Below are positions 1-18,030 of a stretch of 64,000 bases of DNA, one piece after another. Under the pieces are notes generated by a model. That model saw only the letters and a program-made list of their open reading frames with translations, was not told where the DNA came from and did not search any database. The DNA is taken from positions 352,001 through 416,000 of the forward strand of contig CBDCCI010000002.1 of the NCBI GenBank assembly GCA_965214705.1, given 5' to 3'. Both the position numbers and the translations under genes were made by a program. The DNA comes from Alphaproteobacteria bacterium (GTDB lineage: Bacteria > Pseudomonadota > Alphaproteobacteria > UBA828). Position 1 is the first letter of the stretch. The number at the start of each line of letters is the position of its first letter.

Positions 1-191
1 ATCAGCACCGCCGCCGTCGTCCACCACGCCGGCACGAACAGCCAGACCGTCAGCAGCACAAGCAGCCGCGCGTCGATGACGTAGAAGCGCACCGGCCGCA
101 TCGTGTCCCGCCACGGGACAACACCCCGGTCCAGGGGAACTCCCTGGCGCGGCGTCTCCATCGAGACGGCGTCCATCGAGATGGCCATCAT
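1..191 (-). CDS. icmT: IcmT/TraK family type IVB secretion protein (partial, runs off window start)
   Basis: Manual translation from ATG 191 (GGAG RBS): MMAISMDAVSMETPRQGVPLDRGVVPWRDTMRPVRFYVIDARLLVLLTVWLFVPAWW. WRxTxRPVRF..DAR is the IcmT/TraK signature; follows dotB. Confidence 0.8.
   Translation of the reverse strand, partial: MMAISMDAVSMETPRQGVPLDRGVVPWRDTMRPVRFYVIDARLLVLLTVWLFVPAWWTTAAVL
113..148 (+). repeat. 18-bp motif A, 2 copies, inside icmT
   Basis: 131-148 ccaggggaactccctggc preceded by degenerate acgggacaacaccccggt; read as QGVPLDRGVV. Confidence 0.85.
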
Positions 192-203
192 TCATCTCCC
201 CGG

Positions 204-1481
204 TCAAAGCCACATCCTCCCTGTCGTGCCGGGACTACAGGCGGTTGGCGGACCCTCCGCGGTAGCCGTCACGCGCCGCCAATCCGCCTCCCCGATCCGC
301 CCCTCCTGAAAGGCTCTGTCGGCGCTCGCCGCGAGATCGTTGCCGGTGCGCCGCAGCGCATCCGCGATCAGCGCCGGCCAGCGCTCTTGCGGCGCCTCCA
401 TCAGCGTCCCCTTGAGGGCGCCGTCGAAGCGCAGCCACTCCCTGATGGCGGTGCGTCCACGCGAAGAGGTGCGACCACCCGAAGGGGTGCGGCCACCCGA
501 AGGGGTGCTGCCACCCGAAGGGGTGTGTCCGCCTTGCGGGTTCGGCAGCAGCATCTGGGTCACGACGAGGGTCATCACGTCGATCAGCGCCGCGCCCCGC
601 TCGTGGCGCTCGCTCGCCGGGAACTCCGCCAGAAGACGCCGGATCGCGGCGGCCACGCCCACCGTGTGCGCGGTGGCGAACACGGCGATCCCGAAGTCCG
701 CCGCCCGGATCACGGCCTCGGCCGTCTCCCGGTCCCGCGCCTCGCCGACCACGACCGCCGCGGGGCGGCGCCTGAGGCTTGCCCTCAGTCCCTCGGCGAA
801 GCTCGGGAAGTGGCGCGGCACCTCCGAGGACGACATCAGCGCCCCGTCGCCGCCGATGCCGTCGAACACGAACTCGATCGGCGCCTCATAGGACTGCACC
901 CGGCCCGCGCCGCTCTCCAGCAGCCTCCGCGTGCCCGCCGCCAGCAGCGTGGATTTGCCCGACCCCGGCACACCGGTGACCAGCGTCAGGCCCTTGCAGA
1001 GGTCCCAGGCCTCGGCGATCTCGGGTTCGATGCCGAGTGCCTCCAGGGTGGGCGGGCTGCCGGGCAGCACGCGCATGGTGATGTTGATGCCGAAGCGCTG
1101 GCCGGCGAGCACCGGCGAGAGGTTGCAGCGGAAGCGGCGGAAGCACCGGGGGCCGGAGGCGACCGCATAGGAGCAATCGATGGCCCTGCCGGAGCGCAGG
1201 ATGCCGTCTGCGGTGCCGCCACCCGGAGGGGTGCTTCCGCCCGGAGGGTTGCCTTCACCCGCAGGGATGCGGTCGAAGACGCGGGAGCAGATGCGCTCCA
1301 TGACGAGGCCGTCGAGGACGGCGCCGGTGGCCCGGCGGAGCCTCCCGTCGATCTCGACGAAGGCCGGTGCGCCGGTCTGGAAGGAAACGTCGGAGGCGCC
1401 AAGGTCGGCCGCCCAGAGCAGGAAGCCGTCGAGGCCCGCGGCCGGGAAGGCGTGGTCGGCGTCCGCCCAGCGGGGGCTCAT
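204..1481 (-). CDS. dotB: DotB/TraJ PilT-like traffic ATPase
   Basis: ASDVSFQTG, Walker A GVPGSGKST, EAPIEF, LRRRP..VGEARD, His box TAHT. ATG 1481 overlaps the upstream stop (ATGA). Confidence 0.85.
   Translation of the reverse strand: MSPRWADADHAFPAAGLDGFLLWAADLGASDVSFQTGAPAFVEIDGRLRRATGAVLDGLVMERICSRVFDRIPAGEGNPPGGSTPPGGGTADGILRSGRAIDCSYAVASGPRCFRRFRCNLSPVLAGQRFGINITMRVLPGSPPTLEALGIEPEIAEAWDLCKGLTLVTGVPGSGKSTLLAAGTRRLLESGAGRVQSYEAPIEFVFDGIGGDGALMSSSEVPRHFPSFAEGLRASLRRRPAAVVVGEARDRETAEAVIRAADFGIAVFATAHTVGVAAAIRRLLAEFPASERHERGAALIDVMTLVVTQMLLPNPQGGHTPSGGSTPSGGRTPSGGRTSSRGRTAIREWLRFDGALKGTLMEAPQERWPALIADALRRTGNDLAASADRAFQEGRIGEADWRRVTATAEGPPTACSPGTTGRMWL
457..528 (+). repeat. 18-bp motif B, 4 tandem copies, inside dotB
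   Basis: ccacgcgaagaggtgcga / ccacccgaaggggtgcgg / ccacccgaaggggtgctg / ccacccgaaggggtgtgt. Confidence 0.9.
1219..1272 (+). repeat. 18-bp motif B, 3 copies, inside dotB
   Basis: ccacccggaggggtgctt / ccgcccggagggttgcct / tcacccgcagggatgcgg. Confidence 0.8.
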
Positions 1482-2350
1482 GGGGTGTCTCCACCCGCAG
1501 GGGTGCGCCCACCCGCAGGGGTGTGCCCGCCCGCAGGGGCGTCTCCTTCGGGGAGGGGCTTCCACTCTTCGGGGCGGAGCTCGAAGCGGGCCGGCTCGCC
1601 GAGGGCAGCGCGGGTCTCGTCGATCCGCACGAGCCGTCCGTGGCCGCTTGCGGCGATATGCTCCGTCTCCAGCGCCGGCGCCGAGACCATCCCCGCCAGG
1701 TTGGACCGGCGCCACTGCACCAGCCCCTCGAACACCCGGTTGAGGCGCTCCAGGTCGGAGGCGAAGATATCGTCGGCGAGCGCGGTTCCGTGCTCCCAGC
1801 CCTCGCGCATCCACTGCCGCCAGAGCGCGCCTTCCGCATCGTCGCGGGGAAACAGAATCGCCGCCGGGATCTGCGCATGTGCCCAGTCGCGCACCAGGTA
1901 ATCCCGCCAGTGGGGCACGGCGCTCACGATCCTCTCCGGCTCCACGATCCTCAGGATGCGCCTTGCCCCCGCCGCCTGCCTGCCGGACCGTTCCAGCCGG
2001 AAGGCGCGGTCGGTGCCGGCGAGCACCGGCGGCATCACGGTGAAGCCGTCCTTCTCCAGCATCAGCTCGCGGAAGCGGTAGATCGCGGAGAGTTTCCCGG
2101 CGTGCCGCTCAAGCATCGCGGCGATCTCCCAGCTCCGGCGGGCGAGTCCGGCACGTGCGCCGAAGCCGAGCGCGGCCGATCGCATCGCAGGCCGGCGTGC
2201 TTCTCCGGAGAGCGCGCCGCCGTCCGACGCCGCCTCGGGCGCCTCGGACATCAGCAGCGTCTCCAGCGTCGGCGGCAGCTCCGTGCCGCCAAAGGCGATA
2301 TCGGCGCCGAGGCAGAGGAGGGCCAGCATCAGCAAGCAGAAGCGGGTCAT
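1478..2350 (-). CDS. dotC: DotC/TraI family T4BSS core protein
   Basis: AALGFGARAGLA, IYRF..LM, PPVL, P.WRDYL, W..GW..G...A..IF...L.RL motifs; start MTRFCLL coupled to the dotD stop. Confidence 0.85.
   Translation of the reverse strand: MTRFCLLMLALLCLGADIAFGGTELPPTLETLLMSEAPEAASDGGALSGEARRPAMRSAALGFGARAGLARRSWEIAAMLERHAGKLSAIYRFRELMLEKDGFTVMPPVLAGTDRAFRLERSGRQAAGARRILRIVEPERIVSAVPHWRDYLVRDWAHAQIPAAILFPRDDAEGALWRQWMREGWEHGTALADDIFASDLERLNRVFEGLVQWRRSNLAGMVSAPALETEHIAASGHGRLVRIDETRAALGEPARFELRPEEWKPLPEGDAPAGGHTPAGGRTPAGGDTP
1482..1562 (+). repeat. 18-bp motif B, 3-4 copies, at the dotC 3' end
   Basis: ccacccgcaggggtgcgc / ccacccgcaggggtgtgc / ccgcccgcaggggcgtct plus flanking partial units. 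Confidence 0.9.
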
Positions 2351-2976
2351 GAGCCCTCCTTCCCCGGCGCCGAACCGGTGCGTTCTCCCGTACCCGGGAC
2401 TTGCCCTCTCCAGTCGAGGCGAACCGCGCGGTTGCCCGCGTCCAGCACGAGCGTCGCAGCAGCCCCGGCCTGGAGGCCGGCGTCGCGCAGAACCTCGATG
2501 AGGGGGGTGCCGGCGGCCCTTACGCTGACCATCACCGGCCGTACCGGCATCGGGCCTGCCGCCAAGAAGCGGTAGCCCGCGCGTTGCGCGAGAATCTCGG
2601 CAAGGGCCTCGACAGGGCCGATCCAGTCGAGCGTGACCGCACGCCTCAGGGCGGCCGGCACGTCCTCCAGCGCGGGGGAACTCCCCGGTACAGGGGAACT
2701 CCCTGGCACAGGGGAACTCCCTGATACAGGGGAACGCACCGACGCCCCGGCAACGGCCGGCGGAGTCCGCGCGGCGTCGATCCTGGCCAGCGCGGTCAGC
2801 GCCGCCTCCGCCCGAGCCGCCGCCTCTGCAAGCCGCATCTCCGCAGGGTCCGGCCGCACGGCCGCAGGAGGCGCCGGTTCCGCCTCCGGCGTCCCGGTCC
2901 AGAAGGGCGCGCAGCCGGCTGCAATCGGAGCGATGCAGCAGACCGCGAGGAGGCGACGGGCGCGTGAACGGATCAT
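2347..2976 (-). CDS. dotD: DotD/TraH family lipoprotein
   Basis: Lipobox IAAGC; VTLDWIGPVE..LA..AGY.F and L.D.GLQAG motifs. Confidence 0.8.
   Translation of the reverse strand: MIRSRARRLLAVCCIAPIAAGCAPFWTGTPEAEPAPPAAVRPDPAEMRLAEAAARAEAALTALARIDAARTPPAVAGASVRSPVSGSSPVPGSSPVPGSSPALEDVPAALRRAVTLDWIGPVEALAEILAQRAGYRFLAAGPMPVRPVMVSVRAAGTPLIEVLRDAGLQAGAAATLVLDAGNRAVRLDWRGQVPGTGERTGSAPGKEGS
2672..2743 (+). repeat. 18-bp motif A, 4 tandem copies, inside dotD
   Basis: gcgggggaactccccggt / acaggggaactccctggc / acaggggaactccctgat / acaggggaacgcaccgac; read as GSSPVP. Confidence 0.95.
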
Positions 2977-4292
2977 CGCACAGCCCCCGCGTCCTCGATG
3001 ACGAGGTGCCGGTTGGGCTCGTGCGCGAACGCCACCAGGGACCGTCGCGTCGCGGGGCCCCCCATGAGCAGATCGGCGGCGTCCAGGAACCCGCCCCGGA
3101 GCGTGGCGCGGGCGCCCACGGCATAGTGCCGCGCAGCCTTCCACACCACCGACCAGCCCGCCTGTGCGCCCCAGTCCTCGAGCACGTCCAGCAGGGTCCC
3201 GTGGCGTGCCGGGTCCACGACCCACAGCCGATCGCCCCGGTCCGGACCCGGCGTATCGGGGACTTGCCCGGTCCCGGGGAGTTCCCCTGCACCAGGGAGT
3301 TCCCCGGAGCCCGTATTCCGATCGGCAGCCGCTGCCGTCCCCTGCGGCGTGCGCTGCTCGATATCGCGATACCGGTAGAAGACCACGGCGCCGCCTGCCC
3401 AGGTCCAGCTGTAGCCGGTGCGCGCCGTCACGAGGTTCAGCAGCCCTGGCAGGCGCCCCTCGAACTTGAGCGTCGTATCGGGCGGATCGGGCAGCCGTAC
3501 GGCGCCGCCGGCGACACGCGCGGGCCGCTCCTCGATCTCGACGGCAACGCCCGCGGCGATGGCGATGCGCTCCGCCACTGCGGCGAAGGGGAGCGGCACT
3601 GCCTCGTCCACGGCGACATCGCGCATCGCCAGCGACGGGGGCAAGGCCGTCCGCACCGGCGCCAGCTCCGTCGCCGCGAGCATGGCGGACCGGTCCGCCG
3701 CTGACGTCGAGCCCGGACGGGGCGGCGGGGGCGCAGGCATGACGATCCGGGAAGCCGCTGCGTCCTGCATGCCCGGATGAACCGGCGGCAGCGGTATCTC
3801 CGGCGTGTCCGCCGCGAGCGCGCTGCCGGCGTTGACGAACACGAACACCGCCATGGCGCTGGCAACCATGCCGGGCCCGAGCGGGCAGTAGCCTTTCAGG
3901 AAGGAGCGGCCGCGGCGGCGCTGGAGCCAGACGCGGTACAGCAGGGAACAGAGCGAGCCCGCCAGCAGTGCCCAGCCCAGCCCGAGGGGACCGAGCACGA
4001 AGCCGAGGCCGCCAAGGAGCATCGCGTCGCCGGGAAAGAGCGGCCAGCGCCGGCGGCACAGCTGCGCCACCGCGATCGGCACGGCGACGACCGCCACACC
4101 GAGTGCTGCACCGAGTCCCGCACTCCACAGCGGCCCCGTCTCGACTGGTCCAAACAACCGCCAGAGCAGGCCGGACCCCACCAGCGCCAGTACCAGGCGC
4201 GCGTCCACGATCGCGCGACGGGCGTCCACCGCGGCGACTGCCGCCATGGCCGTCAGCACGAGGGCGATCAGAACGAGGTCAGTCGCGGTCAT
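2973..4292 (-). CDS. Prepilin peptidase (A24, PilU-like) fused to STN-like and TcpQ/PilL-like periplasmic domains
   Basis: N-terminal TM region with two Asp (AVDARR, PGDAML) and PLGPGM; C-terminal TLLDVLEDW..AGWSVVW..Y...A...GGFLDA TcpQ-like pattern. Confidence 0.7.
   Translation of the reverse strand: MTATDLVLIALVLTAMAAVAAVDARRAIVDARLVLALVGSGLLWRLFGPVETGPLWSAGLGAALGVAVVAVPIAVAQLCRRRWPLFPGDAMLLGGLGFVLGPLGLGWALLAGSLCSLLYRVWLQRRRGRSFLKGYCPLGPGMVASAMAVFVFVNAGSALAADTPEIPLPPVHPGMQDAAASRIVMPAPPPPRPGSTSAADRSAMLAATELAPVRTALPPSLAMRDVAVDEAVPLPFAAVAERIAIAAGVAVEIEERPARVAGGAVRLPDPPDTTLKFEGRLPGLLNLVTARTGYSWTWAGGAVVFYRYRDIEQRTPQGTAAAADRNTGSGELPGAGELPGTGQVPDTPGPDRGDRLWVVDPARHGTLLDVLEDWGAQAGWSVVWKAARHYAVGARATLRGGFLDAADLLMGGPATRRSLVAFAHEPNRHLVIEDAGAVR
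3254..3308 (-). repeat. 18-bp motif A, 3 copies in reverse orientation, inside the peptidase-TcpQ gene
   Basis: Minus strand tccggggaactccctggtgcaggggaactccccgggaccgggcaagtccccgata; read as GELPGA/GELPGT/GQVPDT. Confidence 0.9.
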
Positions 4293-4767
4293 GGCCGTCC
4301 TCCCTGGTTGAGGTGCCGAAGGTGGCGGGGAGCAGGGGGCACCACGCGCCGAGCGCCGGATCGGCGCAGAGCGCGGCGGCGAGGGTTGCGGGCGCCTCGC
4401 CCGCCTCCGAACCCGCCCGGTTCAGGGCAAGCAGCGCCGCCTGCGCGTTCTTCAGCGCGGAAAGCGTCGCGATCTCCTCGCGCAGCATTTCCATCGCCGC
4501 CAGCGCCCGCTGCCTGAGCGCCGCAGCGGAACCGGACGCGGTGTTGTCCGCGGACTGCGCCGCAGCACGGCGATCCCCTTCACCGGAGCGTTCCCCTGTG
4601 CCGGGAAGCTCCCCCGTGCCGTGGGCGCCGATGGCGTCCGGCATTACTCGGGGACTTTCCTGGCTGGCGCCCGCAGGCATCGTCCCGGCCTGCGCCATGG
4701 CGCTCGACGTCCAGAGACAGGCAGCCAGAGCAGCAGCGATCGGCAGCAGGGTGAGGCTCGTCTTCAT
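4279..4767 (-). CDS. Hypothetical exported protein of the pilus operon
   Basis: Signal peptide (AMA-Q), GGAG RBS, coiled segment, C-terminal Cys pair; operonic position. Confidence 0.6.
   Translation of the reverse strand: MKTSLTLLPIAAALAACLWTSSAMAQAGTMPAGASQESPRVMPDAIGAHGTGELPGTGERSGEGDRRAAAQSADNTASGSAAALRQRALAAMEMLREEIATLSALKNAQAALLALNRAGSEAGEAPATLAAALCADPALGAWCPLLPATFGTSTREDGHDRD
4575..4622 (-). repeat. 18-bp motif A, 2-3 degenerate copies in reverse orientation
   Basis: Minus strand acgggggagcttcccggcacaggggaacgctccggtgaagggga; read as TGELPGTGERSGEG. Confidence 0.75.
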
Positions 4768-4779
4768 CTCTCCGTCTCC

Positions 4780-6096
4780 TCAGCACCCCGTGCAGCGTCC
4801 GACGGTGAGGCGGCTGAAACCGGCCTCCGCCGCGTCGACGCGCCCCGTGGCCCGCACCGCCCGTGCCGTCGCGCCAGCAGCGGAGACCTCCGTTGCCGTC
4901 ACGGTCCGGGCCGTCACGCTGCCGCTCTGCAGGCTCGCGAGCGAAGCGCTGCCGGCCGCCACCGTGCCGCGCACGCCGGCCGAGCCCGCCCTCACGGCGC
5001 CCTGCGCCGTCAGGCTCGCCGCCCTCAGATCGTGTGTGACCGCAAGCGAGCCCGCCGATGCCGCGCCTGCCACCCGCGCGGTCTGCGCCGTGACCCTGGC
5101 CGCCACCTCAGCCGAACCCGAGACGTTCAGCGCGCGGCCCACCATCAGGTCCGCCGTCACCGTGAGCCCGCCGCCCACCGTGAGATCGCTCTCCAGTGCA
5201 AGCGTGTCCGCCTCCATGGCGTTCGCGCCCGTCAGGTCGTTGCCGCCGAGGTCGAGATCGGTCTCCATGCGGTTGGCGTCGGCAAAGCCCGGCACCGGGA
5301 CGCGGTAGAGCTGGTCGCCGTAGACGGCCCGGTGGTCGAGACGCCTGAGCGTCGCCAGCGCGCCCGCTTCGGGCGCGCCGCCGAAGGCGGTCCGGAAGGC
5401 GCTCATGTCGGCGTCCACGGCCGGGCCCGTCAGGCGGTCGGGGATGTCCGGCAGCACCACCCCCATCCTGGCGTTGCCGCCGGCTCCGAACAGCGCCGAT
5501 GCGGGAACCTCGGTGGATCCGGGCGTTCCCCCGCCCGCCGGCACTGTCTGGGTCACCAGCAGGTCGATGGTGTCCGCGCCTGCCGCGAGCATGAGCACCC
5601 GGTAGCCGCGGCCCATGGCGCCCACCTCGGCGAAGCCGGCAGGCAGCGCACCGGCGCCGCGAAGTGTTGCCAGCGTGAGTTCGAAGGAGCCGCCGCCGAG
5701 GGCGGCCAGCATCGCGGGGAAGCGGCCGCTGACGTGGCTTGCGGCGGCGTCGGAGAGCACGGTGAGCTGCCGTGCGGCGAGACGGGCGCGCTCGTCCATG
5801 GCCCTGTTCTCGAAGAAGAGCGCCACGGCCAGCACCATCGCGCCCAGCAGCCCCAGAGCCAGCAGCGACCCAAAGAGGCTCAGTCCCCGGCTCAGCCCCC
5901 GACTGAGCCGCAGGCTCCGTCCCAGGCAATGACGCCGATTCAGCGCAGGGCTCCGTCCCCGGCGGAGGCCTCGACCGGCACCGTGGTTCTGTCCGTGAGT
6001 ACCGCCCAGACCCGGGCATCGGCCCGGTGCTCCATCCAACGCCGGGATCGCCCTCGCGCTCTCGAGACGCCGATGACTTGCGCACACGGTCAGCAT
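4780..6096 (-). CDS. PilV-like minor pilin/adhesin 1 (start uncertain)
   Basis: Pilin-like G|LSLFGSLLALGLL helix; LYR...PG....NRMETDLDLGGN motif typical of the PilV N-terminal region; beta-repeat tail ending CTGC. Confidence 0.7.
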   Translation of the reverse strand: MLTVCASHRRLESARAIPALDGAPGRCPGLGGTHGQNHGAGRGLRRGRSPALNRRHCLGRSLRLSRGLSRGLSLFGSLLALGLLGAMVLAVALFFENRAMDERARLAARQLTVLSDAAASHVSGRFPAMLAALGGGSFELTLATLRGAGALPAGFAEVGAMGRGYRVLMLAAGADTIDLLVTQTVPAGGGTPGSTEVPASALFGAGGNARMGVVLPDIPDRLTGPAVDADMSAFRTAFGGAPEAGALATLRRLDHRAVYGDQLYRVPVPGFADANRMETDLDLGGNDLTGANAMEADTLALESDLTVGGGLTVTADLMVGRALNVSGSAEVAARVTAQTARVAGAASAGSLAVTHDLRAASLTAQGAVRAGSAGVRGTVAAGSASLASLQSGSVTARTVTATEVSAAGATARAVRATGRVDAAEAGFSRLTVGRCTGC

Positions 6097-7849: not shown

Positions 7850-7863
7850 GTCTCTGTCCTCCG

Positions 7864-10532: not shown

Positions 10533-11437
10533 GAGCCGTCTCCCTTGCCATCCCGGCGCGGACCGGTAACGGCGAAAGGACGGGGCCTGTACGGAAGGGC
10601 GCCCTCGACGGCGCCCTCCACGTGCACGCCCGGCGGGCGGGCAACGATGCGCGCCACCGTCACGCCGCCGGGGAGGCTGTCTCCCTCGCGCACGAACCAG
10701 ACCCTCGCGCCACCGTGCCCGGTGCCGTCGCCGATGCCGGCGCGCAGGTCGCCGGCCGTGCCGATGATCGAGAACCAGGCATAGTCTGGCGGCGCGGGGT
10801 CTGCCGGCGCCTCATCCTTGTCCGGCGCCTCTTCGGCCGCCTCGTCCGCGGGCGGCAGCGAGATCACGCGGACCGGCACCGACTCCTTAACTGTAGGGGT
10901 GTCCGCAATCGTGGAGCCGACTTGGCCCCCGGTAGGCCTCGCAGCGCTGCCCCGCGCCTCTGCCAACAATTCCCCGAGCTCGCCTTCAAGGGCGACGATG
11001 CCGTTGACGATCTCCTGGCGCTCGCGGCAGAGCGCCAGGGTCTCGCGCTCGATCGCCAGCGCCGAGACCGCATCCGCCGTCTCGGTCGCCTCCGCCAGAA
11101 GCGCTGCCAACAGCGCGCGCGGACAGCCCTGCAAGACGGCCGCAGGTGCTGCTCCGCCGCTCGCCGGCAAGCCGGCCCCAACCGGATCGGGTTCGCCGAC
11201 AAGTGCCTCCGGCGCCGCCGGCTCCGGAGCCGGCGGCGCCGCCCCCTCGCTCAGCATCCGCAGCAGGCGGCTGTCCGGCATGGCGCCCGCCCCGGCATCC
11301 GCCTCGGCAGCCGCGTGGGCAATCCCGATCGCCGTTGGCGGCAGCGCTGCGGGTTCGCTCGCCGCGGCAGCGCCCGCCGTCAGAGGCGCAGCCAGAAGGC
11401 CGGCGAAGAGAGCCGCACAGCGGACCGGAGCAGTCAT
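10529..11437 (-). CDS. PilP-like periplasmic pilus protein
   Basis: Signal peptide, coiled coil, C-terminal I.G....L.A...VREGDSLPGG.TV..I beta domain; upstream of pilQ. Confidence 0.55.
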   Translation of the reverse strand: MTAPVRCAALFAGLLAAPLTAGAAAASEPAALPPTAIGIAHAAAEADAGAGAMPDSRLLRMLSEGAAPPAPEPAAPEALVGEPDPVGAGLPASGGAAPAAVLQGCPRALLAALLAEATETADAVSALAIERETLALCRERQEIVNGIVALEGELGELLAEARGSAARPTGGQVGSTIADTPTVKESVPVRVISLPPADEAAEEAPDKDEAPADPAPPDYAWFSIIGTAGDLRAGIGDGTGHGGARVWFVREGDSLPGGVTVARIVARPPGVHVEGAVEGALPYRPRPFAVTGPRRDGKGDGS

Positions 11438-11444
11438 CGTCCGG

Positions 11445-12683
11445 TCACTCCCCGCCGCCACCGGCGCCAGGGGCGACCGGATCGATGCCGGGAAGCGCCT
11501 GCTGCCCGGCGGCCAGGCCGCGCCAGGGCCAGGCATAGGTCTCGGCGACCCCGTCGAGCGAGACGTGGAGATGGCCGCGCGACCACCGCCAGCGCCCGCC
11601 GATCTTGCCTCCGTCTGCGGCCTCCACTGTCGCCGTGCCGCCGTCGCCGAAACGCACGGCCACGCCGCCACGATCTCCCAGAGGCAGCGTCACCGGCCGA
11701 TCGGCGGCCAGGAGCCGGTCCGTCAGCACGAAAGCCCCGTAGCGCTCACCCGTCGGCTGCAGCGGGAAGGGGTCGCCCAGGCGGTACTCCAGACGGCGCG
11801 GCAGGCGCTCCCACTGCGCCACGATCCCGGCGCCATCGGCCGCAGGCAGCAGTACCGCCGTGTCGGCTACGTCCCCACGCTCATCCAGCCGCCAGAGCTC
11901 GTCACGCTCGGCTCCCAGCACCAGCACCACGCGCACAGGGGAACTCCTTGGTGCCCCCGCCGGGCTCTCCAGCACGTAGCCGTCGTTGGCGGCCAGGAAG
12001 CGGCCGAGCTCTGCCGCAGTCACCGTCGAACTGCCGCCCGACATCGCCAGCCCGGTCGAGCCGGGCGCGCGCAGCTCCGAGCCGGGGTGCGCACGCACGG
12101 CGGCGTCCGCATCCTGCGCAACCGCCTCCTCCATGAGCGCGGAGACCTGCTTGGCGTTGACCGGAAGGCCGGCGGGAAGATCGAGGTCCGGACAGGCCTG
12201 CTTCAGCGCCTGCGGCCAGCTCTCCTGCACCCAGCCGAGCGAGAGCACGAACCAGGCGCTCCCCCCGACGCTCTCGCTGTGGAGCCGGCCCGTCCCCGGG
12301 TCGTAGAAGATCGGCACGTGGCCCTTCACGTGGCCCGGATCGGGCTCGGTGCCGGCGTCGCGGTAGTTGTAGAGGGCCCGGAAGCGGGGCGAGGACACCA
12401 CGCGCCAGCGGTCGACACGCGCCTGCCAGACGCCGTCGAGGTGGATGCACGCCCGCGCGGTGCCGTCGGCCGCGTGGTGGATGCCCCAGACCAGGCCCCG
12501 GTCGCCCGCATGCGCCGAGTTGGGACGCTCGAGAACCCAGACCCGGTCCGTCAGCAGCTCCGAGAACAACGCCGCATCGTGGGAGCTGTAGTTGGGAGGC
12601 CCGGACTGGGCACTTGCCTCTGCCGCGCCTGCCGCCATGAGAGCGGCCGCCGCCAGGCCCACCATGCTCCGACGCGCCTTCAT
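11445..12683 (-). CDS. Hypothetical exported protein
   Basis: Signal peptide ASA-Q, Trp-rich; translationally coupled (ATGA) within the operon. Confidence 0.6.
   Translation of the reverse strand: MKARRSMVGLAAAALMAAGAAEASAQSGPPNYSSHDAALFSELLTDRVWVLERPNSAHAGDRGLVWGIHHAADGTARACIHLDGVWQARVDRWRVVSSPRFRALYNYRDAGTEPDPGHVKGHVPIFYDPGTGRLHSESVGGSAWFVLSLGWVQESWPQALKQACPDLDLPAGLPVNAKQVSALMEEAVAQDADAAVRAHPGSELRAPGSTGLAMSGGSSTVTAAELGRFLAANDGYVLESPAGAPRSSPVRVVLVLGAERDELWRLDERGDVADTAVLLPAADGAGIVAQWERLPRRLEYRLGDPFPLQPTGERYGAFVLTDRLLAADRPVTLPLGDRGGVAVRFGDGGTATVEAADGGKIGGRWRWSRGHLHVSLDGVAETYAWPWRGLAAGQQALPGIDPVAPGAGGGGE
11935..11952 (+). repeat. 18-bp motif A, single copy
   Basis: acaggggaactccttggt (17/18 to consensus); read as PRSSPV. 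Confidence 0.85.
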
Positions 12684-14359
12684 GACCGAACCGCCCGGAC
12701 CGGCGCGAGCCAGCGCGCCTCGAGGCGGCGCACCATGGCGACGTAGATGGCGAAGGCACGATCCTTCTCACCGGCGCGGATCGCCGCCACCGCCTCGTCG
12801 ACCCGGTCGCCGATCCAGGTCCAATCCGCGTGAGCGCGGGGGATCGCCGCGACGATGCGGGGCGCGATCTCGTAATACCTGGCCACCAGGGCGCGCCGCT
12901 CCGGCGTCTGCTGCATGTAGCCGTCGCGGAAGGACCTGAGCGCCGTCAGCGTCGGGCCGTCGTCGGCCTCGATGCCCCGCGCGCCTGCCACCGCCTCGGT
13001 GAGGAAGCAGCCGCCATCGCCGCCGCCGCTGCCCGCGCCGGGACCCACGCCCGGCCCCGAGCAGGTGCCGTCGCCGGGGCCGTCCGAGCCGCCGCCATCT
13101 CCGGGTGCAGGCCCGCAACTGCCGTCGCCGGGACCGCCCGTTCCGGGACCGACCCCTCCGGGGCCGCTGCCTCCGGGGCCCGTCCCGCCCGGAGGGCTGA
13201 CCGTCGGCGGCGCTACCGCCACGCAGCCCGTGTCGTCCGCGATCCAGTTGCCCGGGATATCCTGCACCGTCGGCGACGCGTCCCATGGCCACCGGGTCGA
13301 GCGCTCCGTCACCGTCCGGGTCAGCAACACCGTGCCCGTGTACCCCGCAGGGCAGGACTGTTGCGCCGTCTCTGTCCTCAGCGTCTCCGACACCGCGGCC
13401 TGCGGCAAAGCGGGCACATGCCCCTCCCAGCAGCTCGTGGACACGAACTCCGGCGTGCCCCAGGAAACGCCCTCCGCCGTCACCGTCTTCTCGCGCCGCC
13501 AGATCTCCTGTCCGGTCATCTCCCGGTTGTGCGGGGGGCCGGCGAACCAGGTGCACTCCAGCGTGTAGTGCTCCCACTCGCTGTAGTCGGCGCGGCAGTC
13601 GTCGATGAGCACCTGCCAGGAACCGGTGACGGGGGCGCCCGTGGGATCGCCCCGACCGTCGTGGGCCTGGCGGACCTCCCGGGTCATGGTGCGGCCGCCG
13701 CCGTGGCTGCCCGCAGGGCAGTCCTCGACGGTGCGCTCGTGGGAGATACGCTCGCGGCTCTCAAGGTGCGGATCGCGCACCGTGCCGGCGAGCGCCACGC
13801 GGCCGGAGGGCAAGGGGCCGCCGAACGAGGCGTCCGACAGGCATGCGGGCAACGCCACGTCGGCGCGGCCCGCCGTCCCGGTGGCTGAATCCCCTTCCAG
13901 CCAGTGCAGGGCCGGGAGGCCGCCCACCAGGGAGTTTCCCTCTTCGGCATAGAGGTGCGGCGCAACCTGCACCGAGCGGTGATCGCGCCCCACGCCCTTC
14001 AGGGACGCCGGCTCCAAGTAGACGAGAAGAGTGTTCCCGCAGTAGCGCGCACGCACCCCGCGCTCGGTCCAGGCATCGAGCCAGCCCATGGCGGCAGGGG
14101 GCACCGAGCCGGTCCAGCTCACCGCCGCCGCCGAGCGGCGGAGAATGTGGTCCTCCAGGCTCCGCCAGGCCTCGGCGATGGCCGTCGCATGGGCCAACGC
14201 CTCCTGGCGGTAGGCCCGCTCGGCCTCGTACCCCTGCGCCGCCGCAGGCGTCGTGAACGCCGCAACCCCGGCGAGCACCGCCGTGCCCGTCGCGATCGCG
14301 ACCGCGAGCGTGCTGGCTCCGGCCAGAACGCGGGCGCGCAAACGTCGTCTCCTACTCAT
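12680..14359 (-). CDS. Exported Cys-rich protein with Gly-rich linker and CFI-box-CTERM-like C-terminal domain
   Basis: Signal peptide; CPAG..G repeats; GPGG repeats; C-terminal GGCFLTEAV...LR.FRD.Y......LV..YY..AP pattern. Confidence 0.65.
   Translation of the reverse strand: MSRRRRLRARVLAGASTLAVAIATGTAVLAGVAAFTTPAAAQGYEAERAYRQEALAHATAIAEAWRSLEDHILRRSAAAVSWTGSVPPAAMGWLDAWTERGVRARYCGNTLLVYLEPASLKGVGRDHRSVQVAPHLYAEEGNSLVGGLPALHWLEGDSATGTAGRADVALPACLSDASFGGPLPSGRVALAGTVRDPHLESRERISHERTVEDCPAGSHGGGRTMTREVRQAHDGRGDPTGAPVTGSWQVLIDDCRADYSEWEHYTLECTWFAGPPHNREMTGQEIWRREKTVTAEGVSWGTPEFVSTSCWEGHVPALPQAAVSETLRTETAQQSCPAGYTGTVLLTRTVTERSTRWPWDASPTVQDIPGNWIADDTGCVAVAPPTVSPPGGTGPGGSGPGGVGPGTGGPGDGSCGPAPGDGGGSDGPGDGTCSGPGVGPGAGSGGGDGGCFLTEAVAGARGIEADDGPTLTALRSFRDGYMQQTPERRALVARYYEIAPRIVAAIPRAHADWTWIGDRVDEAVAAIRAGEKDRAFAIYVAMVRRLEARWLAPVRAVRS
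13926..13943 (-). repeat. 18-bp motif A, single copy
   Basis: Minus strand agagggaaactccctggt (16/18); read as EGNSLV. Confidence 0.75.
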
Positions 14360-15698
14360 GATCCGGACTCCCCGTCGTTGGCTGTGCCGGCGCTTGCGTC
14401 GCCGGCCGCTCCGGTGGTTCACCCGCTGGCCGAGCCGCTCGCTGCGCCACTCGCTGCGCCACTCGCTGCGCCAGCCGCTCGAACTCCGAGCCGGGAATGG
14501 ACGCCGGCGCCACGCGCCGTCCTTCCAGGGTCCATTCGCCGGCCGCGTCTTGCGCGAGGCGCACGAGCTCCAGCCCCGGCACGCTCGCGACGGCATCGGC
14601 GAGCCGCTCCGGTGGCCGCCGCGTCGCGATGCGAACCTCGATCCCGTCCGCGCCCTGCTGCGGGTATTCGATGCGGGTTCCGCGGGCGCCGAAGCGGCGG
14701 TCCACCGCGTCCCGGAACTCAAGAAGGGAAGGCGGCACGGCATTCGACAGACGCAGCACGGGTTCCAGAGGAACCACCGCCCAGGCCGCAGCGCCGCTGA
14801 CCTGCGCCGCGTACCAGCCCGAGAGATGCGCCTCTGCGATGCGCCGGTGCAGAGGCTCCGGCCGGCCTGAATCGAGGCGCCAGCGCACCGCCAGCACCGC
14901 CCGGCCTTCGAACTCGGGACGGGCCGCGGTCAGCGCGGCGTACCAGGGCGTTCCCCTGTCGGCGAAGCGGCCCTCGCAGGAGACCCGCTCCGTCCGCCAT
15001 GCCGGCAACCAGGGCGGATGCTCCATGAGCGCCCGGCGGCAGCCCGCGATCAACGCGCCCGAATCCAGCGCGGCCGTCACCGGCGGATCGGCCGGCGCCT
15101 GTTCGACCTCCGCCGCCCGCTCGGGGCCGGCAATCAGACGCCACAGGCTCTCGTGCTCGGACCAGAGAACGACGGAAGCGGCCATGAGAGCGGCCACGCT
15201 CAGAGCGCCCGCCGCCGTGCGCAGCCCAAGCCGTGCCAGAGGCGCAGCGGCAAGGCGCATGGCGGGATCGTCCGCCAGCGCCGCCGGATCGATCCCGGCT
15301 GCCTCGCCGTCCGCGAGCCCCGGCGTCGCATGCAATGCCCAGCCGACGTCGCGGGAGCGTTCGAAGGCTTCCAGGGCCGATGCCCGGTCGGAGAACACCT
15401 CGTCCCCGTCCGCGAGGATCGCCCCGTCCCGCGCCTTCACCAGCGCGAAGCGCCCGTCGTCCGCCTCCACCAGCGCCATCCAGAAGGGCGCTCCGATATG
15501 CGCCTGCAGCGATGCCGCGAGGCTGGGGCAGCCGGCGGGATCGTCCTCGTCGGCCGCATACCCGGTCTGCCCGCCCCAATGGACGTACCAGGGACGGCCG
15601 AAGGCGCGCGCATTCCGCGCCACCGAGGCCGCACCGCCGCGCTCCATCCAGTAGAGCCCCGCGGCGAAGCGCCGGCCGCTGACCGTGAGCACGCTCAC
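14352..15698 (-). CDS. pilO: PilO-like type IVb pilus accessory protein
   Basis: N-terminal FAAGLYW, SLAA, DG.IL..GD motifs; single TM; follows the secretin. Confidence 0.75.
   Translation of the reverse strand: MSVLTVSGRRFAAGLYWMERGGAASVARNARAFGRPWYVHWGGQTGYAADEDDPAGCPSLAASLQAHIGAPFWMALVEADDGRFALVKARDGAILADGDEVFSDRASALEAFERSRDVGWALHATPGLADGEAAGIDPAALADDPAMRLAAAPLARLGLRTAAGALSVAALMAASVVLWSEHESLWRLIAGPERAAEVEQAPADPPVTAALDSGALIAGCRRALMEHPPWLPAWRTERVSCEGRFADRGTPWYAALTAARPEFEGRAVLAVRWRLDSGRPEPLHRRIAEAHLSGWYAAQVSGAAAWAVVPLEPVLRLSNAVPPSLLEFRDAVDRRFGARGTRIEYPQQGADGIEVRIATRRPPERLADAVASVPGLELVRLAQDAAGEWTLEGRRVAPASIPGSEFERLAQRVAQRVAQRAARPAGEPPERPATQAPAQPTTGSPDHE
14942..14959 (-). repeat. 18-bp motif A, single copy, inside pilO
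   Basis: Minus strand acaggggaacgccctggt (17/18); read as RGTPWY. Confidence 0.85.
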
Positions 15699-17296
15699 GA
15701 GGGATCACCCCGGTACAGGGGAACTCCCTGGTACAGAGCAGCTCCCCGGTCCAGCTCGACTCCCTGCACCTCGGAAATGCCCAGAGGCGCGCCGATATCT
15801 GCCGCGATCAGAAGCACGCGCTCCTCCCGCACCAGCCGCGCGCTGCGGCCGCCGAGCGGCACCGGCAGGTCCGCGTCGATGCTGCCCTCACGGCTCGACA
15901 CCGCGCCCCGGTCGCTGAACCCCGTCACCATCAGGGTCTCGCCGCGGCCGATCTTCCTGGTCACCTGCACCGCGCGCCCGCCGTAGGCCGGAAGCTGGAT
16001 GGTGTGACCGTCCGTGGTGAAGGTGGTGAAGCGCGGCCGGTCCCTGAGACTCGCGCTCAGGCGCACCAGGACCTCGTCGGGGCCGGTGATGCGCGCTAGG
16101 TAGGAGAGCGCGAACCCCGAGGACACGGTGCCGGGCACCAGCTCTGTCTGCGCGACACCCTCGCCGGCCGTGGTCCTGAGCTCCTTGAGATAGGCCTCGT
16201 TGGTGAGCTCCAGGAACTGCGCGGGCTTGCCGTTGAGAGAGGGGATGTCCGCGCTCAGAACCCTGGACACCGTGCCCGCCCGGCTCAGCGCGCGCACAGC
16301 CGCCGCCAATGCGTCCTCGGCCCCGGTGGGCCGGATCAGCGACACCGTGTCGCCGGCCACCGCGACGCCCACCGACGAGTCCAGAAGCTCCGAGAGCGAG
16401 AGAGCCACGCCATGGTCGGTCTCGCGCTCGAAGCGCACCGCATAGAGGTGCACCGACAGCGTCACCGGGCGCAGCACCTCGCGGTTGAGCCAGCCGAGGT
16501 AGCCGCGCACCCTGCGCACGTCACGAGGCGCGCCGCTCACCGTCACCGACGCGCTCGCCGGCGAGACCGTGACCACGGTCTCCTCAGCCACGAGCCCCGC
16601 GAGCTGGTCTTCGATCTCGGGCCAGGGGTCGTAGACGGTCTCGCTCTCGATGGACTGCGCGGAAAGGCTGGCGGAGCCGTCCTCGCCCGTCTGGTCCTGC
16701 GTGGACGACGAGGCGCCGTGGCGCTCGCTGCCGGCGAGCGCGTTGACTTGGAACACCGCGGTGAGCGAGCGCACGATCTCGATGCGTTCCGTGCGCGAGT
16801 CATACCGCCACTCGTGGCCGGCGGCCTCCACCCAGGCGTCCAGCAGCCGGTCGATCGGTCCGGTCCAGACGGCGCCGTTCGGCACGAGCAGGTCGGTAGC
16901 GGCGAACGAGGCGCCGACATCGCCACGAGCGGCACCGACGAAGCGCACCGGCAATCCGGTAGCGGCCTCGATGCGCGCCGCCAGCACCGCATCTTCATCG
17001 GCGCCCGTCAGCGGCAAGGTCACCGCGTCATCGGCAAGCAAGCGCTGGGGCAGAGTGCCGCGCCGGTCCTCCTCGATCGGTTCAAGCCCCACGTAGGGCC
17101 GCGCGACAGGGCGCACCGTGACGTAGCCGGACCCGGCCGGGGCCGTGCGCGCCGCTGCGGCGTCCCGGGCCACCGCACGCGCCTCTTCGCGCGCATCTTC
17201 AATTGTGCTCAGGCCGCAGCCGGTCAAAGCGAGCAAGGTGGATAGTGCCAGCGCCGAAGGCCGCACGATCCGCAAGTGAGTCCGCGCGCCCATCAC
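15695..17296 (-). CDS. pilN: PilN-like lipoprotein secretin
   Basis: Lipobox LTGC; LNGKPA, Y.......T, PGTVSSGF, IQLP, GETLMVTGF secretin motifs. Confidence 0.85.
   Translation of the reverse strand: MMGARTHLRIVRPSALALSTLLALTGCGLSTIEDAREEARAVARDAAAARTAPAGSGYVTVRPVARPYVGLEPIEEDRRGTLPQRLLADDAVTLPLTGADEDAVLAARIEAATGLPVRFVGAARGDVGASFAATDLLVPNGAVWTGPIDRLLDAWVEAAGHEWRYDSRTERIEIVRSLTAVFQVNALAGSERHGASSSTQDQTGEDGSASLSAQSIESETVYDPWPEIEDQLAGLVAEETVVTVSPASASVTVSGAPRDVRRVRGYLGWLNREVLRPVTLSVHLYAVRFERETDHGVALSLSELLDSSVGVAVAGDTVSLIRPTGAEDALAAAVRALSRAGTVSRVLSADIPSLNGKPAQFLELTNEAYLKELRTTAGEGVAQTELVPGTVSSGFALSYLARITGPDEVLVRLSASLRDRPRFTTFTTDGHTIQLPAYGGRAVQVTRKIGRGETLMVTGFSDRGAVSSREGSIDADLPVPLGGRSARLVREERVLLIAADIGAPLGISEVQGVELDRGAALYQGVPLYRGDPS
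15697..15750 (+). repeat. 18-bp motif A, 3 copies, at the pilN 3' end
   Basis: acgagggatcaccccggt / acaggggaactccctggt / acagagcagctccccggt; read as DRGAALYQGVPLYRGDPS. Confidence 0.9.
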
Positions 17297-18030
17297 TCGC
17301 TCTTCGGAGAGCAGGGGGACTCATCGGTGTCGGGTTCGGGTGGCGGCTTGCCCGGGTCCGAGGTCGAGGAACGCTCCCGGGACGCCAGCCAGGCATTCAC
17401 CTTCGCGCGGGCGTAGAGAACCCGGCCCTTCAGCTTCAGGTATGGGGGACCGCCGCCCTCCAGCCTCCAGCGGCAGAGGGTGCTTTGGCTCCGGCGCAAG
17501 ATCGGCGCAAGCTCGCGCGTGCTCCAATAGAGAGGCTTGGCTCCCGCAGCCGGCGGCGGCTCCTCTGCCGCTGCGGACGAAGCCGCGTCCTCGCCGGAAA
17601 GCTCCTCCGCCCCCGGCCCTTCGCCGGCGGCGGCCTCGATCATGCGCCATTCCTCGGCGGTCGCATTCTTCCTCATCCAGGCGCGCATCCGGTCCACGGT
17701 CTTGAGGCGAGGAGAGGAGCCGTTCTGCAGGCGTTTCACGAAGGAGCGGTTCTGCACCGCCCCCTGGCCCACCGCGCTTGGCTTCGCGCCGGTCACGTTC
17801 AGATAGGCTTCCACCTCTTTCCTGAAGCGCGGCCCGATCAGCTCCATGCCCATGAAGTGGAGAATGCGGTCTGCGGTATCGAGGCGGGGCGTACATTTGC
17901 CCCCCAGCAGGACGCGGACAAAGGAGGGGTTGCCGAAGAGCATGCGTCCCATTCCGGACGGACTGAGCTTGCTCCGGCGTTCGATGAAGGCCTTGACGGC
18001 GTCCTTGAGGTATTGAGCACTATCGGTCAT
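17293..18030 (-). CDS. DNA-binding regulator: two tandem Cro-like HTH domains plus a C-terminal AlpA/excisionase-like HTH
   Basis: Duplicated PS..G.....N.SFV..L..G..PRL.T.DR...M units; C-terminal STRELA..L..S.STL.RWR..GGGPPY.K..GRVLY. First gene of the operon. Confidence 0.75.
   Translation of the reverse strand: MTDSAQYLKDAVKAFIERRSKLSPSGMGRMLFGNPSFVRVLLGGKCTPRLDTADRILHFMGMELIGPRFRKEVEAYLNVTGAKPSAVGQGAVQNRSFVKRLQNGSSPRLKTVDRMRAWMRKNATAEEWRMIEAAAGEGPGAEELSGEDAASSAAAEEPPPAAGAKPLYWSTRELAPILRRSQSTLCRWRLEGGGPPYLKLKGRVLYARAKVNAWLASRERSSTSDPGKPPPEPDTDESPCSPKSE

Follow-up and report, generated by a model that had tools for sequence, protein, structure and literature searches.

An 18-bp palindromic unit inserted in frame in the conjugation genes of an uncultured Rhodospirillales genus

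How can one short palindrome recur, in frame, in gene after gene of a conjugation operon? The question is raised by a 64,000-nt stretch of alphaproteobacterial DNA (GenBank assembly GCA_965214705.1, contig CBDCCI010000002.1, positions 352,001 to 416,000), which is called the window here. It corresponds to C3:352001-416000 of genome G000, which measures 7.92 Mb at 67% GC in three contigs. The start of the window is occupied by an operon of Dot/Icm-like type IVB secretion system (T4BSS) genes and IncI-type thin-pilus genes, and an initial annotation had reported an 18-bp palindromic DNA unit written into many of them. The comparisons presented below show that whole units are gained at empty sites, lost, and amplified in 18-bp steps within conjugation genes.

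At up to three mismatches, the consensus of this unit (ACAGGGGAACTCCCTGGT, family A) matches the window 11 times, where 0.04 matches are expected, and none of 100 dinucleotide shuffles gave 11. The matches start at positions 131, 2672, 2690, 2708, 3273, 3291, 4582, 11935, 13926, 14942 and 15715; all fall within 131-15732 and inside open reading frames (ORFs). Taken alone, the bare palindrome CAGGG-N5-CCCTG is not significant, as it has 11 matches against 3.62 expected and one of 100 shuffles reached this number. Synonymous codons were also shuffled within the 15 coding sequences, so that each peptide and the codon usage were preserved; the hits then averaged 1.19 (sd 0.89, at most 4), and none of 300 such shuffles gave 11. 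Since synonymous shuffling leaves so few of the observed copies, the conservation of the DNA exceeds what the peptides require. The unit is therefore real by these numbers, far above both dinucleotide- and codon-shuffled sequence. The accompanying claim of a conserved DNA and a non-conserved peptide is supported by the loss of signal on synonymous shuffling and by the use of five frames and two orientations.

The 18-mer has no stop codon in any frame, and each unit adds exactly six codons. The host ORFs do remain open, and they retain their Pfam domains. The translations proposed from the sequence are likewise correct: QGVPL in the IcmT-like protein and PilN, GSSPVP in DotD, RGTPWY in PilO, GELPG in a peptidase fusion and in the small ORF 4279-4767, and GNSLV in ORF 12680-14350. 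Degenerate in-phase units with 4-5 mismatches lie at 113-130, ~2392-2409, 3255-3272, 5515-5532, 15697-15714 and 15733-15750. Most of the weak copies listed in the initial annotation are of this kind, but the one at 17311 is doubtful. At up to three mismatches, no match lies beyond 15732. The earlier statement that the 46 kb outside the operon have no copy is true in the window, but the cluster extends ~12 kb upstream of the window start.

Whole-unit insertions in the window operon and its relatives

Four paralogous Dot/Icm-like and thin-pilus operons, E1 to E4, were identified in G000 by tblastn. E1 is the window copy, and protein identity to it is 45-82% for E2 and 46-67% for E3 and E4. In alignments of the four paralogues, the units appear as clean 6-, 12- or 18-residue insertions, placed differently in each element. 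This answers a check proposed in the initial annotation: the units are insertions of 6n residues, missing at those sites in the paralogues. Insertions specific to E1 include DRGTPWY in PilO and EEGNSLV in ORF 12680-14350. DKGTSWH and VSGRSPV in PilQ and YRGVPRY in PilN are specific to E2, and a threefold TGELPG at the PilN C-terminus occurs in E3 only. One protein carries insertions at three different places, APRSSPV in E1, GQGSFPV in E2 and TGERPG in E3.

The closest relative fetched, locus L020, is 85-89% identical, and its length differences from E1 are exact 18- or 36-bp unit blocks. Those at 2707, 4580, 11936, 14938 and 15729 are present in E1 but not in L020, and those at 3273, 6839 and 10523 in L020 but not in E1. 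Copy number thus differs by 18-bp steps between elements, a variation that the initial annotation had proposed to look for. The operon and the units mapped in it are listed here, with gene calls based on open frames, GC content at third codon positions (GC3) and Pfam; family B is a second unit family described further below.

3-17296, minus strand: host operon with Dot/Icm-like T4BSS and IncI-type thin-pilus genes (Pfam, paralogue map)
113-148, plus strand: A array in the N-terminal tail of the IcmT-like protein (gene on the minus strand); good unit at 131-148, degenerate unit at 113-130, RQGVPL
450-525, plus strand: B array in the DotB-like ATPase; four to five units of GGTGCGNCCACCCGNAGG, P-S-G-G-x-T
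1212-1265, plus strand: B array in the N-terminal domain of the DotB-like ATPase; three units, PAGEGN-PPGGST-PPGGGT
1484-1537, plus strand: B array in the C-terminal tail of the DotC/TraI-like lipoprotein; three units directly upstream of the DotB start codon
2392-2409, minus strand: degenerate A unit near the DotD C-terminus; four mismatches
2672-2743, plus strand: A array in the linker of the DotD lipoprotein; three good units and a partial fourth, GSSPVP
3255-3308, minus strand: A array in the Peptidase_A24/TcpQ fusion; two good units and one degenerate unit, GELPG
4582-4617, minus strand: A array in the small ORF 4279-4767; one good and one degenerate unit, read as GTGELPGTGERSG
5515-5532, minus strand: weak A-like copy in the first PilV-like (Shufflon_N) gene; about five mismatches, low confidence
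11935-11952, plus strand: solo A unit in ORF 11445-12683, PRSSPV
13926-13943, minus strand: solo A unit in ORF 12680-14350, EEGNSLV; six-residue insertion missing in E2-E4
14942-14959, minus strand: solo A unit in the PilO-like gene, DRGTPWY; exact 18-bp insertion relative to L020
15697-15750, plus strand: A array at the junction of the PilN C-terminus and the PilO start, YQGVPLY

All genes at 3-18174 lie on the minus strand. Pfam matches within the operon comprise a DotB-like T2SSE ATPase, T4SS_TraI (DotC-like), DotD, the Peptidase_A24 and TcpQ fusion, two Shufflon_N (PilV-like) proteins, the PilS pilin and a PilQ-like T2SSE ATPase, together with weak matches to PilO and Secretin_N_2; the IcmT-like ORF has no Pfam match. 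The operon continues upstream past the window start, where DotI/IcmL, a TrbI-like protein, a TrwB-type coupling protein and a TrwC-type relaxase (E = 8e-84) were identified. At its other side, Pfam identifies two regulators, an HTH_17 protein at 17293-18174 and a Peptidase_S24 repressor at 18419-19162.

Occupancy of these sites varies between elements. In the IcmT-like N-terminal tail, L020 has extra unit sequence, E2 has three units in the same frame, E3 is read in another frame, and E4 has none. The B array at 450-525 is a 24-residue insertion missing in E2-E4, with a copy number that differs by 36 bp from L020. The one at 1212-1265 is an 18-residue insertion missing in E2-E4 and in the DotB structure 6geb, and L020 has one unit more. 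Relative to this solved DotB (E = 2.5e-55), the array at 450-525 lies between the two aligned blocks, and both arrays fall at an alignment gap or inter-block break. At the place of the degenerate unit at 2392-2409, L020 carries 18 + 36 additional bp of variant units. One unit of the DotD linker array (2672-2743) is missing from L020, and the whole array from E3 and E4. The insertion in the peptidase fusion (3255-3308) is missing in E2-E4 and is 36 bp longer in L020, and the 36 bp at 4582-4617 are missing from L020. When L020, L023 and L027 are compared with E1, the solo unit at 11935-11952 stands out as an insertion of exactly 18 bp. At 15697-15750, where an 18-bp difference from L020 is found, a perfect unit (15715-15732) stands between two degenerate ones. 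Many arrays sit where genes meet, among them those at dotC/dotB, at pilN/pilO and at the start of IcmT.

The preference for 18 bp was quantified in an all-against-all comparison of 32 loci, in which unique gaps with well-aligned flanks were counted. Gaps of 18 bp (94), 36 bp (46) and 54 bp (9) were obtained, against 4, 7, 5 and 3 gaps of 21, 24, 27 and 30 bp, respectively. Gaps of 12 bp (40) and of 15 bp (67), mostly unrelated to the unit, were frequent too. Family A was matched at up to four mismatches by 57 of the 94 gaps of 18 bp and 30 of the 46 gaps of 36 bp, compared with 7/67 at 15 bp and 0/40 at 12 bp. Tandem arrays with a period of 18 number 89 in 23 loci, against 5, 3, 1 and 2 for periods of 16, 17, 21 and 24. 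All but one of 261 units (up to four mismatches, 27 loci) map onto E1, in 56 site bins of 90 bp, within which neighboring insertions are merged. Many bins are occupied in a single locus, hot spots are common to up to 11 loci, and more than 15 genes carry units. Single units make up 68 of 135 arrays, while two units are found in 31 arrays, three in 22 and four to eight in 14. This presence and absence of 18-, 36- and 54-bp segments at ~56 sites indicates that it is the DNA itself that gains and loses blocks of 18 bp.

The solo insertions allow the event itself to be described. Pairwise comparison gave 46 solo events, which form 28 groups and ~12 independent sites with an empty homologous site. 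Where the flanks align well, the phase of the inserted 18-mer is constant, starting with ACAGG and ending with CTGGT. No target duplication is found at solo insertions, and the gap position slides by at most one to two bases. Over 82 distinct flank clusters, a weak likeness to a unit junction is seen in the flanking bases, with C at position +2 in 66 and at position -4 in 53, and with AC as the first two right-flank bases in 29. Some "empty" sites, such as the PilQ N-terminal site, contain half-unit-like sequence. A variant in which A9 is changed to T (GATC loop) is present at at least five sites, mostly between 2.4 and 4.7 kb in E1 coordinates, and this clustering suggests that variant copies seed new copies nearby.

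A different spacing was observed at the IcmT N-terminus of E3 (L004:7369-7485, equivalent to G000:C1:1291369-1291485). There, A-like units at 7369, 7402, 7435 and 7468 have a 33-bp period, made of one unit and 15 extra bases, and encode PVPGSSPARGS repeats.

Sequence, pairing and reading frames of the two unit families

The consensus of the 261 family A units is ACAGGGGAAC[T/G/A]CCCTGGT. In their matrix, C2, G4, G6, G7, A8, C10, C12, C14 and G16 are at least 92% conserved, and positions 2, 4, 6-8, 10, 12-14 and 16 are near-invariant in every frame, while variation is seen at positions 1, 3, 11, 15 and 18. At position 11, 132 units have T, 89 have G, 38 have A and only 2 have C. In the RGTPWY frame this position is the third base of the Thr codon and, although the GC3 of the genome is ~88%, C is shunned. 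Because the copies sit in five frames, this positional conservation does not come from coding.

Positions 2-6 pair with 12-16 to form a stem, and conservation extends to the GAAC loop. At pair 3-15, 129 units have A-T, 51 have G-C, 47 have A·C and 7 have G·T. Double changes that preserve pairing were found at separate sites, namely ACAAGGGAACTCCTTGGT, ACAGCGGAACTCGCTGGT, ACGGAGGAACTCTCCGGT adjoining ACCGTGGAACTCACGGGT, ACGGGAGAACTTCCCGGT and ACAGAGGATCACTCTGGT. Across 139 distinct units, 87.6% of the cells pair, compared with 84.3 ± 0.4 after shuffling (0/500 shuffles reach the observed value), and 31 cells are changed on both sides of a pair, compared with 12.1 ± 2.5 after shuffling (0/500) and 3-9 in slid controls; these covariation counts include related copies, which limits their weight. 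The compensatory changes may favor base pairing over base-specific half-sites, which argues mildly against the protein-binding array that had been suggested for the operon.

The consensus strand is the coding strand for 101 units and the other strand for 160. The excess of A·C over G·T at pair 3-15 is equal in both orientations, and the signal is thus independent of the transcript strand. An mRNA-strand hairpin as the cause of this asymmetry was ruled out on the same ground.

Five of the six frames are used. On the coding strand the consensus is read as TGELPG, QGNSLV or RGTPWY, and on the other strand it gives PGSSPV or QGVPL. Among the 43 of 82 distinct arrays that could be framed confidently, PGSSPV accounts for 23, RGTPWY for 8, and YQGVPL, TGELPG and QGNSLV for 4 each; TREFPC was never found. 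This skewed use looks like a filter on the peptides tolerated by the proteins. Most copies lie in linkers, tails and loops, and their peptides are rich in Gly, Pro, Ser and Thr.

The survey in the initial annotation was incomplete, as a second 18-bp family had been overlooked at 450-525, 1212-1265 and 1484-1537. Tandem Repeats Finder delimits 18-bp arrays at 450-525, 1214-1270 and 1482-1543. The consensus of this family B (GGTGCGNCCACCCGNAGG) is again an 18-bp palindrome (GGGTG-4-CACCC), with 24 hits in G000 at up to two mismatches, 15 of them in E1 or E2. In E1, B units are insertions missing in E2-E4 and read as P-x-G-G-x-T; in E2, they have the opposite orientation and are read as GVTTRR. 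The DotB and DotC sites resemble the B unit even in uninserted paralogues, which have PQGGRT and PAGGAR as native peptides; about two in three bases of the native DotB codons agree with the unit, as judged by eye. Such unit-like native sites suggest that units land where the target resembles the unit. When all arrays with an 18-bp period in 38 loci were clustered de novo, 83 segments fell in family A and 37 in family B, the next cluster having 6. There are two families only, A and B, and they share the same architecture with a 5-bp stem.

A B-form hairpin, CACCC-GAAG-GGGTG, was also noticed at G000:C1:3492467-3492500, between two IS91-like copies and directly before a group II intron-like 5' end. 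Its interpretation as a mark of an origin of transfer (oriT) was dropped, as it adjoins this apparent intron end.

Distribution among genomes and the search for a mover

At up to three mismatches, G000 contains 46 hits, clustered at C3:340520-367732 (the window operon), C1:1630118-1650865, C1:1291369-1306919 and C1:3453536-3453571. The idea that the unit is unique to one operon has to be abandoned, as three paralogous operons on another contig and a relaxase paralogue carry copies. The even chromosomal spread expected of a host repeat was not seen either. At up to four mismatches, 52 of the 97 genome copies lie in the 119 kb of the four operons (1.5% of the genome), a density of 437 per Mb versus 5.8 per Mb elsewhere. 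Among the hits outside the four operons, one is in a TrwC relaxase paralogue and another in an integrase-like ORF. A further ORF outside them, at G000:C2:687408-688124, has an A-like unit within a repetitive GEHPGPEERSGPGKHPGLEDRSGPGE stretch and is homologous to an ORF upstream of E1 (C3:315617-316801).

At up to two mismatches, 15 of the 20 other genus genomes contained the unit, one of them having as many as 43 copies. Outside the genus, 3 of 20 genomes had a single hit each; within the family, 16 of 24 genomes were positive, and the consensus written backwards, used as a control pattern, gave 0-1 hits per genome. No units were detected in genomes G015, G016, G018 and G011. In a collection of 185,579 species, 30 stretches contain the exact 18-mer, and 18 of them are in records of Alphaproteobacteria, Rhodospirillales or Defluviicoccus metagenome-assembled genomes (MAGs). 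The remaining 12 are singletons in unrelated taxa. We estimate that ~17 occurrences would be expected by chance in a collection as large as this. DNA of E1 is matched in 20 of the 21 genus genomes, and the relatives found are all uncultured MAGs. The unit is thus restricted to a single genus of uncultured Rhodospirillales.

Homologous elements with PilN 56-59% identical (L035-L039, L046, L048 and L050) have no unit and no 18-bp arrays. The element of G015 is closer to E1 (PilN 67%, PilQ 75% identical), and in this unit-free genome it has 0 units at up to four mismatches, whereas E3/E4-like elements of other genomes, although more distant, carry 2-4. Unit presence thus tracks the genome and not the element lineage, which fits a spread in trans between co-resident elements. 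No match to window positions 1-17300 was obtained in the plasmid collection. Part of positions 1-6000 was found in 20 sequencing runs from 8 studies, none of those listed being recorded as RNA.

G000 carries an unusually large conjugative load, with 37 matches to the TrwC relaxase N-terminal domain besides its four operons. It also has 97 matches to the IS91-family Y2 transposase, mostly open frames of 361-418 aa (for example at C3:531772-532332, C1:3489306-3489878 and C1:3493926-3494498), a family present in only 2 of the 20 other genus genomes. These matches represent a recent burst of insertion sequences (IS), which may explain part of the 7.9-Mb genome size.

The initial annotation had also proposed an element or enzyme that adds 18-bp units. 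The addition of whole units is the best fit among the options it gave, but no such enzyme was found. The Y1 transposase family (RAYT, IS200/IS605; PF01797) was detected in 0 of 21 genus genomes, the same search being positive in 6 of 14 control genomes, and RAYT/IS200 was rejected as a mover on this absence. The IS91 family does not track the units because, for all its copies in G000, only 3 of 21 genomes carry it, and it was rejected as well; the family inserts next to a tetranucleotide resembling the unit loop. TrwC-type relaxases are present in all 21 genus genomes, with or without units, so their presence is uninformative as a correlate. Pairs of unit halves 200-8000 bp apart were not found in the genome, which argues that no parent element ends in unit halves. 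The footprints of an element that had been invoked are not supported, since no larger element with such ends and no target duplication were seen. Searches for an oriT gave nothing unit-like, whether by scanning for inverted repeats near the relaxase and coupling-protein genes or in the 320-bp gap upstream of the coupling-protein gene. The 12-mers common to the regions upstream of nine relaxase paralogues were coding matches only, and the short hairpin motif of a known relaxase system had 0 matches.

Possible routes of insertion and comparison with known repeats

Which process could write such units into these genes? We tentatively favor a non-autonomous, hairpin-forming mini-repeat of six codons that would move by copy-paste within conjugation genes, through hairpins in single-stranded DNA and template switching. 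The unit would fold as a hairpin in single-stranded DNA, and the copy-paste step would depend on this fold. The most likely route would be that a polymerase stalls and switches its template from one unit to another while the DNA is single-stranded in conjugative processing, which would explain why the hits are in conjugation genes and not in the chromosome; slippage would then expand the arrays. The only survivors are insertions that leave the frame open and give tolerable Gly/Pro/Ser/Thr-rich peptides, and this filter accounts for the five of six frames seen and for the position of most copies in linkers, tails and loops. Template switching is favored because of the junction-like flanks, the local spread of a variant, the architecture shared by the two families and the lack of a tracking enzyme.

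Several results weigh against this copying of hairpins. Generic template switching leaves unexplained both the exact length of 18 bp common to two unrelated families and the insertion of whole units only. The stem covariation may reflect a selected function or the relatedness of copies and not a copying mechanism, and the retention of a compensated variant array in five related loci hints at a constraint at the level of the site, for which a purely selfish repeat has no need. The hairpin is of modest stability, ~-5 kcal/mol per unit with z = -0.9 relative to shuffles. The frame statistics leave 39 of the 82 arrays unframed, near gene ends or in weak-signal stretches. Neither an enzyme that tracks the units nor a direct trace of template switching was found. 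A single-stranded arena predicts hits in the cargo, yet the window has no copy in its 46 kb beyond the operon. The relaxase and coupling-protein genes adjacent to E1 and E2 have no units either, although a relaxase paralogue elsewhere has one.

Rather unlikely, in our opinion, is that the units are selected cis-acting elements, hairpins or sites read by a protein or RNA of the element or the host. They could serve as an operon-coating silencer, as an RNA-processing or translation-coupling signal at junctions, or as priming or processing signals of the transferred strand, and selection would retain the inserted sites. The restriction of the units to conjugation genes, the conservation of positions regardless of frame with C excluded at position 11, the stem compensation with a conserved GAAC loop and the retained variant array would all be expected under such selection. 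So would the many arrays at junctions (dotC/dotB, pilN/pilO, the IcmT start), and the HTH_17 and S24 regulators predicted on the flanks of the operon would be candidate binders. However, a reader of single strands or mRNA loops would see only part of the units, given their two orientations (101 vs 160), and the A·C over G·T asymmetry is independent of the transcript strand. Copy number and occupancy differ widely between close relatives, the element of G015 is complete without any unit, and the sites arise by whole-unit insertion and not by substitution. Another reading that we consider rather improbable is that of an 18-nt hairpin module copied in trans between co-resident elements by the conjugation machinery, with arrays perhaps co-opted as cis signals at junctions. 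A TrwC-type relaxase, or a polymerase or primase, would then act on the transferred single strand. If so, conjugation would write six-residue insertions into transfer proteins, and the unit would be the smallest mobile DNA yet seen.

A more specific role for the relaxase, micro-transposition by the conjugative HUH enzyme of the TrwC family, is distinctly unlikely. The unit would be a minimal pseudo-oriT, made of a hairpin arm and a nick site; nicks at two neighboring units would release an 18-nt piece carried on a tyrosine, to be joined to a nick-like site in single-stranded DNA. The elements do encode a TrwC-family relaxase (Pfam E = 8e-84), its N-terminal domain has 37 matches in the genome, and a conjugation-specific unit with constant phase and no target duplication fits HUH chemistry. 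A precedent makes this route conceivable, as the cited portion of the R388 work describes a 17-bp segment, a hairpin arm and nick site, that suffices for TrwC strand transfer and integration, the enzyme having two catalytic tyrosines and a target reducible to those 17 bp (PMC3264647). The unit is of a similar size class and logic. Against the route stand the relaxases of all 21 genus genomes, unit-free ones included, the searches that found no oriT and no likeness of an oriT to the unit, and the two specificities that two unrelated unit sequences would need. No orientation bias exists, though one is expected if only the transferred strand is processed. We know of no relaxase that spreads 18-nt pieces.

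Selection on the peptides is very improbable. Gly/Pro/Ser linkers could be favored as such, with the likeness of the DNA resulting from codon bias (67% GC) and local slippage; the peptides are linker-like, the PGSSPV frame prevails in 23 of 43 framed arrays, and the Cys-containing sixth frame is never used. The same 18-mer is nevertheless found in five frames and two orientations, synonymous shuffling contradicts the idea (11 vs 1.19), homologues are entirely without the insertions, and zero-mismatch copies are common to different species. We give as little credit to excision footprints or collapsed terminal inverted repeats of a transposon, or to repetitive extragenic palindromic (REP) sequences moved by a RAYT/IS200-type transposase. 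The unit does resemble two 9-bp inverted ends placed head to head, in an IS-rich genome with 97 IS91-family matches. However, the Y1 family is missing from the genus (0/21, against 6/14 controls), IS91 genes in 3/21 genomes contrast with units in 15/20 other genus genomes, neither half pairs 200-8000 bp apart nor target duplications were found, and strict 18-bp tandem arrays are atypical of footprints. The probability that remains goes to some other enzyme.

In-frame palindromic repeats are already known, from Rickettsia palindromic elements (RPEs) and intragenic REPs, and the unit described here is a variant of that kind. RPEs, as presented in the cited section of a Rickettsia study, are ~150 bp long and form ten families with a conserved peptide each, with 44 insertions in Rickettsia conorii scattered through unrelated chromosomal metabolic genes (PMC10969869). 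The analogy drawn in the initial annotation is apt, since both are in-frame palindromic insertions into functional ORFs that are tolerated as small peptides, and the cited texts name no dedicated transposase for RPEs (PMC10969869, PMC3733652). The differences lie in the length of 18 bp instead of ~100-150 bp, the five frames and peptides instead of a conserved one, the 18-bp tandem arrays and the location in conjugation genes, as far as RPEs are described there. REPs are given in the excerpt cited as 20-40 bp long, with a GTAG or CGTC tag, mostly extragenic, genome-wide and usually accompanied by a RAYT gene (PMC3733652). Like REPs and REPINs, the unit is a short G+C-rich hairpin resembling miniature mobile DNA, and some REPs lie wholly in ORFs according to the passages cited (PMC3733652, PMC3116915). 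Unlike them, the 18-bp unit has no GTAG or CGTC (the tandem junction reads GTAC), is intragenic and clustered, and has no Y1 transposase. PARCELs are presented in the cited excerpt as intragenic tandem repeats with dyad symmetry, a link to mobile elements and a 25-residue protein motif (PMC2996958). Their peptide is conserved and their proteins are of unknown function in that account, whereas the peptide of the 18-bp unit is not conserved and its hosts are secretion and pilus proteins.

Other classes resemble the units in part. MITEs (inverted-repeat transposable elements of miniature size) have terminal inverted repeats of 15-30 bp, a total length of 70-300 bp and a target-site duplication; here the whole unit is 18 bp, ~12 filled/empty pairs have no duplication, and no split unit flanks a larger element. 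Variable numbers of tandem repeats arising by slippage only would share the 18-, 36- and 54-bp differences at fixed loci, but the same 18-mer is found in 56 site bins and many genes, with 68 of 135 arrays consisting of one unit. In comparison with binding-site arrays (parS, operators, iterons), the stem positions of the unit are mostly near-invariant, with double complementary changes at 31 vs 12.1 ± 2.5, a count that includes related copies. The sfx sites of the IncI shufflon are short recombination sites flanking invertible 3' segments of pilV and need the Rci recombinase. They too are in-frame repeats in an IncI-type thin-pilus operon, and two Shufflon_N (PilV-like) genes are present here. 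However, the units are found in more than 15 genes, with only one weak copy in the PilV-like ones, and no recombinase family was matched by Pfam among the ORFs scanned across window positions 1-21195. The small dispersed repeats (SDRs) of cyanobacteria, reportedly described by Elhai et al. in 2008, are said to be very small mobile repeats of 21-27 nt, recognized by presence or absence relative to orthologous sequence and having no known enzyme. They are reportedly neither codon-length, nor limited to one operon type, nor arranged in strict tandem arrays. A literature search in a limited library found no 18-bp in-frame repeat described for conjugation operons. The new features are the length of 18 bp, a codon-length unit without stops, the almost wholly intragenic location, the strict tandem arrays and the tie to conjugation genes, and the unit is among the smallest mobile-looking repeats seen.

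If the hairpin copying that we favor is true, repeats far below the known transposon size can act as mobile DNA, and six codons without a stop would let a repeat live almost wholly inside essential genes of mobile elements. It would also point to a mutational process tied to conjugation genes. The units provide a natural record of the tolerance to six-residue insertions in DotB, DotC, DotD, PilN, PilO, PilQ and others. For annotation, they account for odd low-complexity stretches in the conserved conjugation proteins of these genomes, and they are a sharp marker of the element family.

Some further observations concern the window itself. A 12-bp repeat (3.3 copies) at 14434-14473 encodes AQRV repeats at the C-terminus of the PilO-like protein, and a 36-bp repeat (2.5 copies) at 5876-5963 lies upstream of, or N-terminal in, the first PilV-like ORF; both are unrelated to the 18-bp units. 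At 4780-7214, the Shufflon_N (PilV-like) genes are adjacent, and their C-terminal parts are 34-35% identical over ~190 residues. Downstream of the S24 repressor gene, an ORF for a group II intron reverse transcriptase/maturase (RVT_1 and GIIM) is located at 19885-21195 on the plus strand, with the intron RNA upstream of it, from ~19270. The sole Rfam match in the window is a group II intron D1-D4 RNA at 31193-31337 on the minus strand (RF02003, 80 bits).

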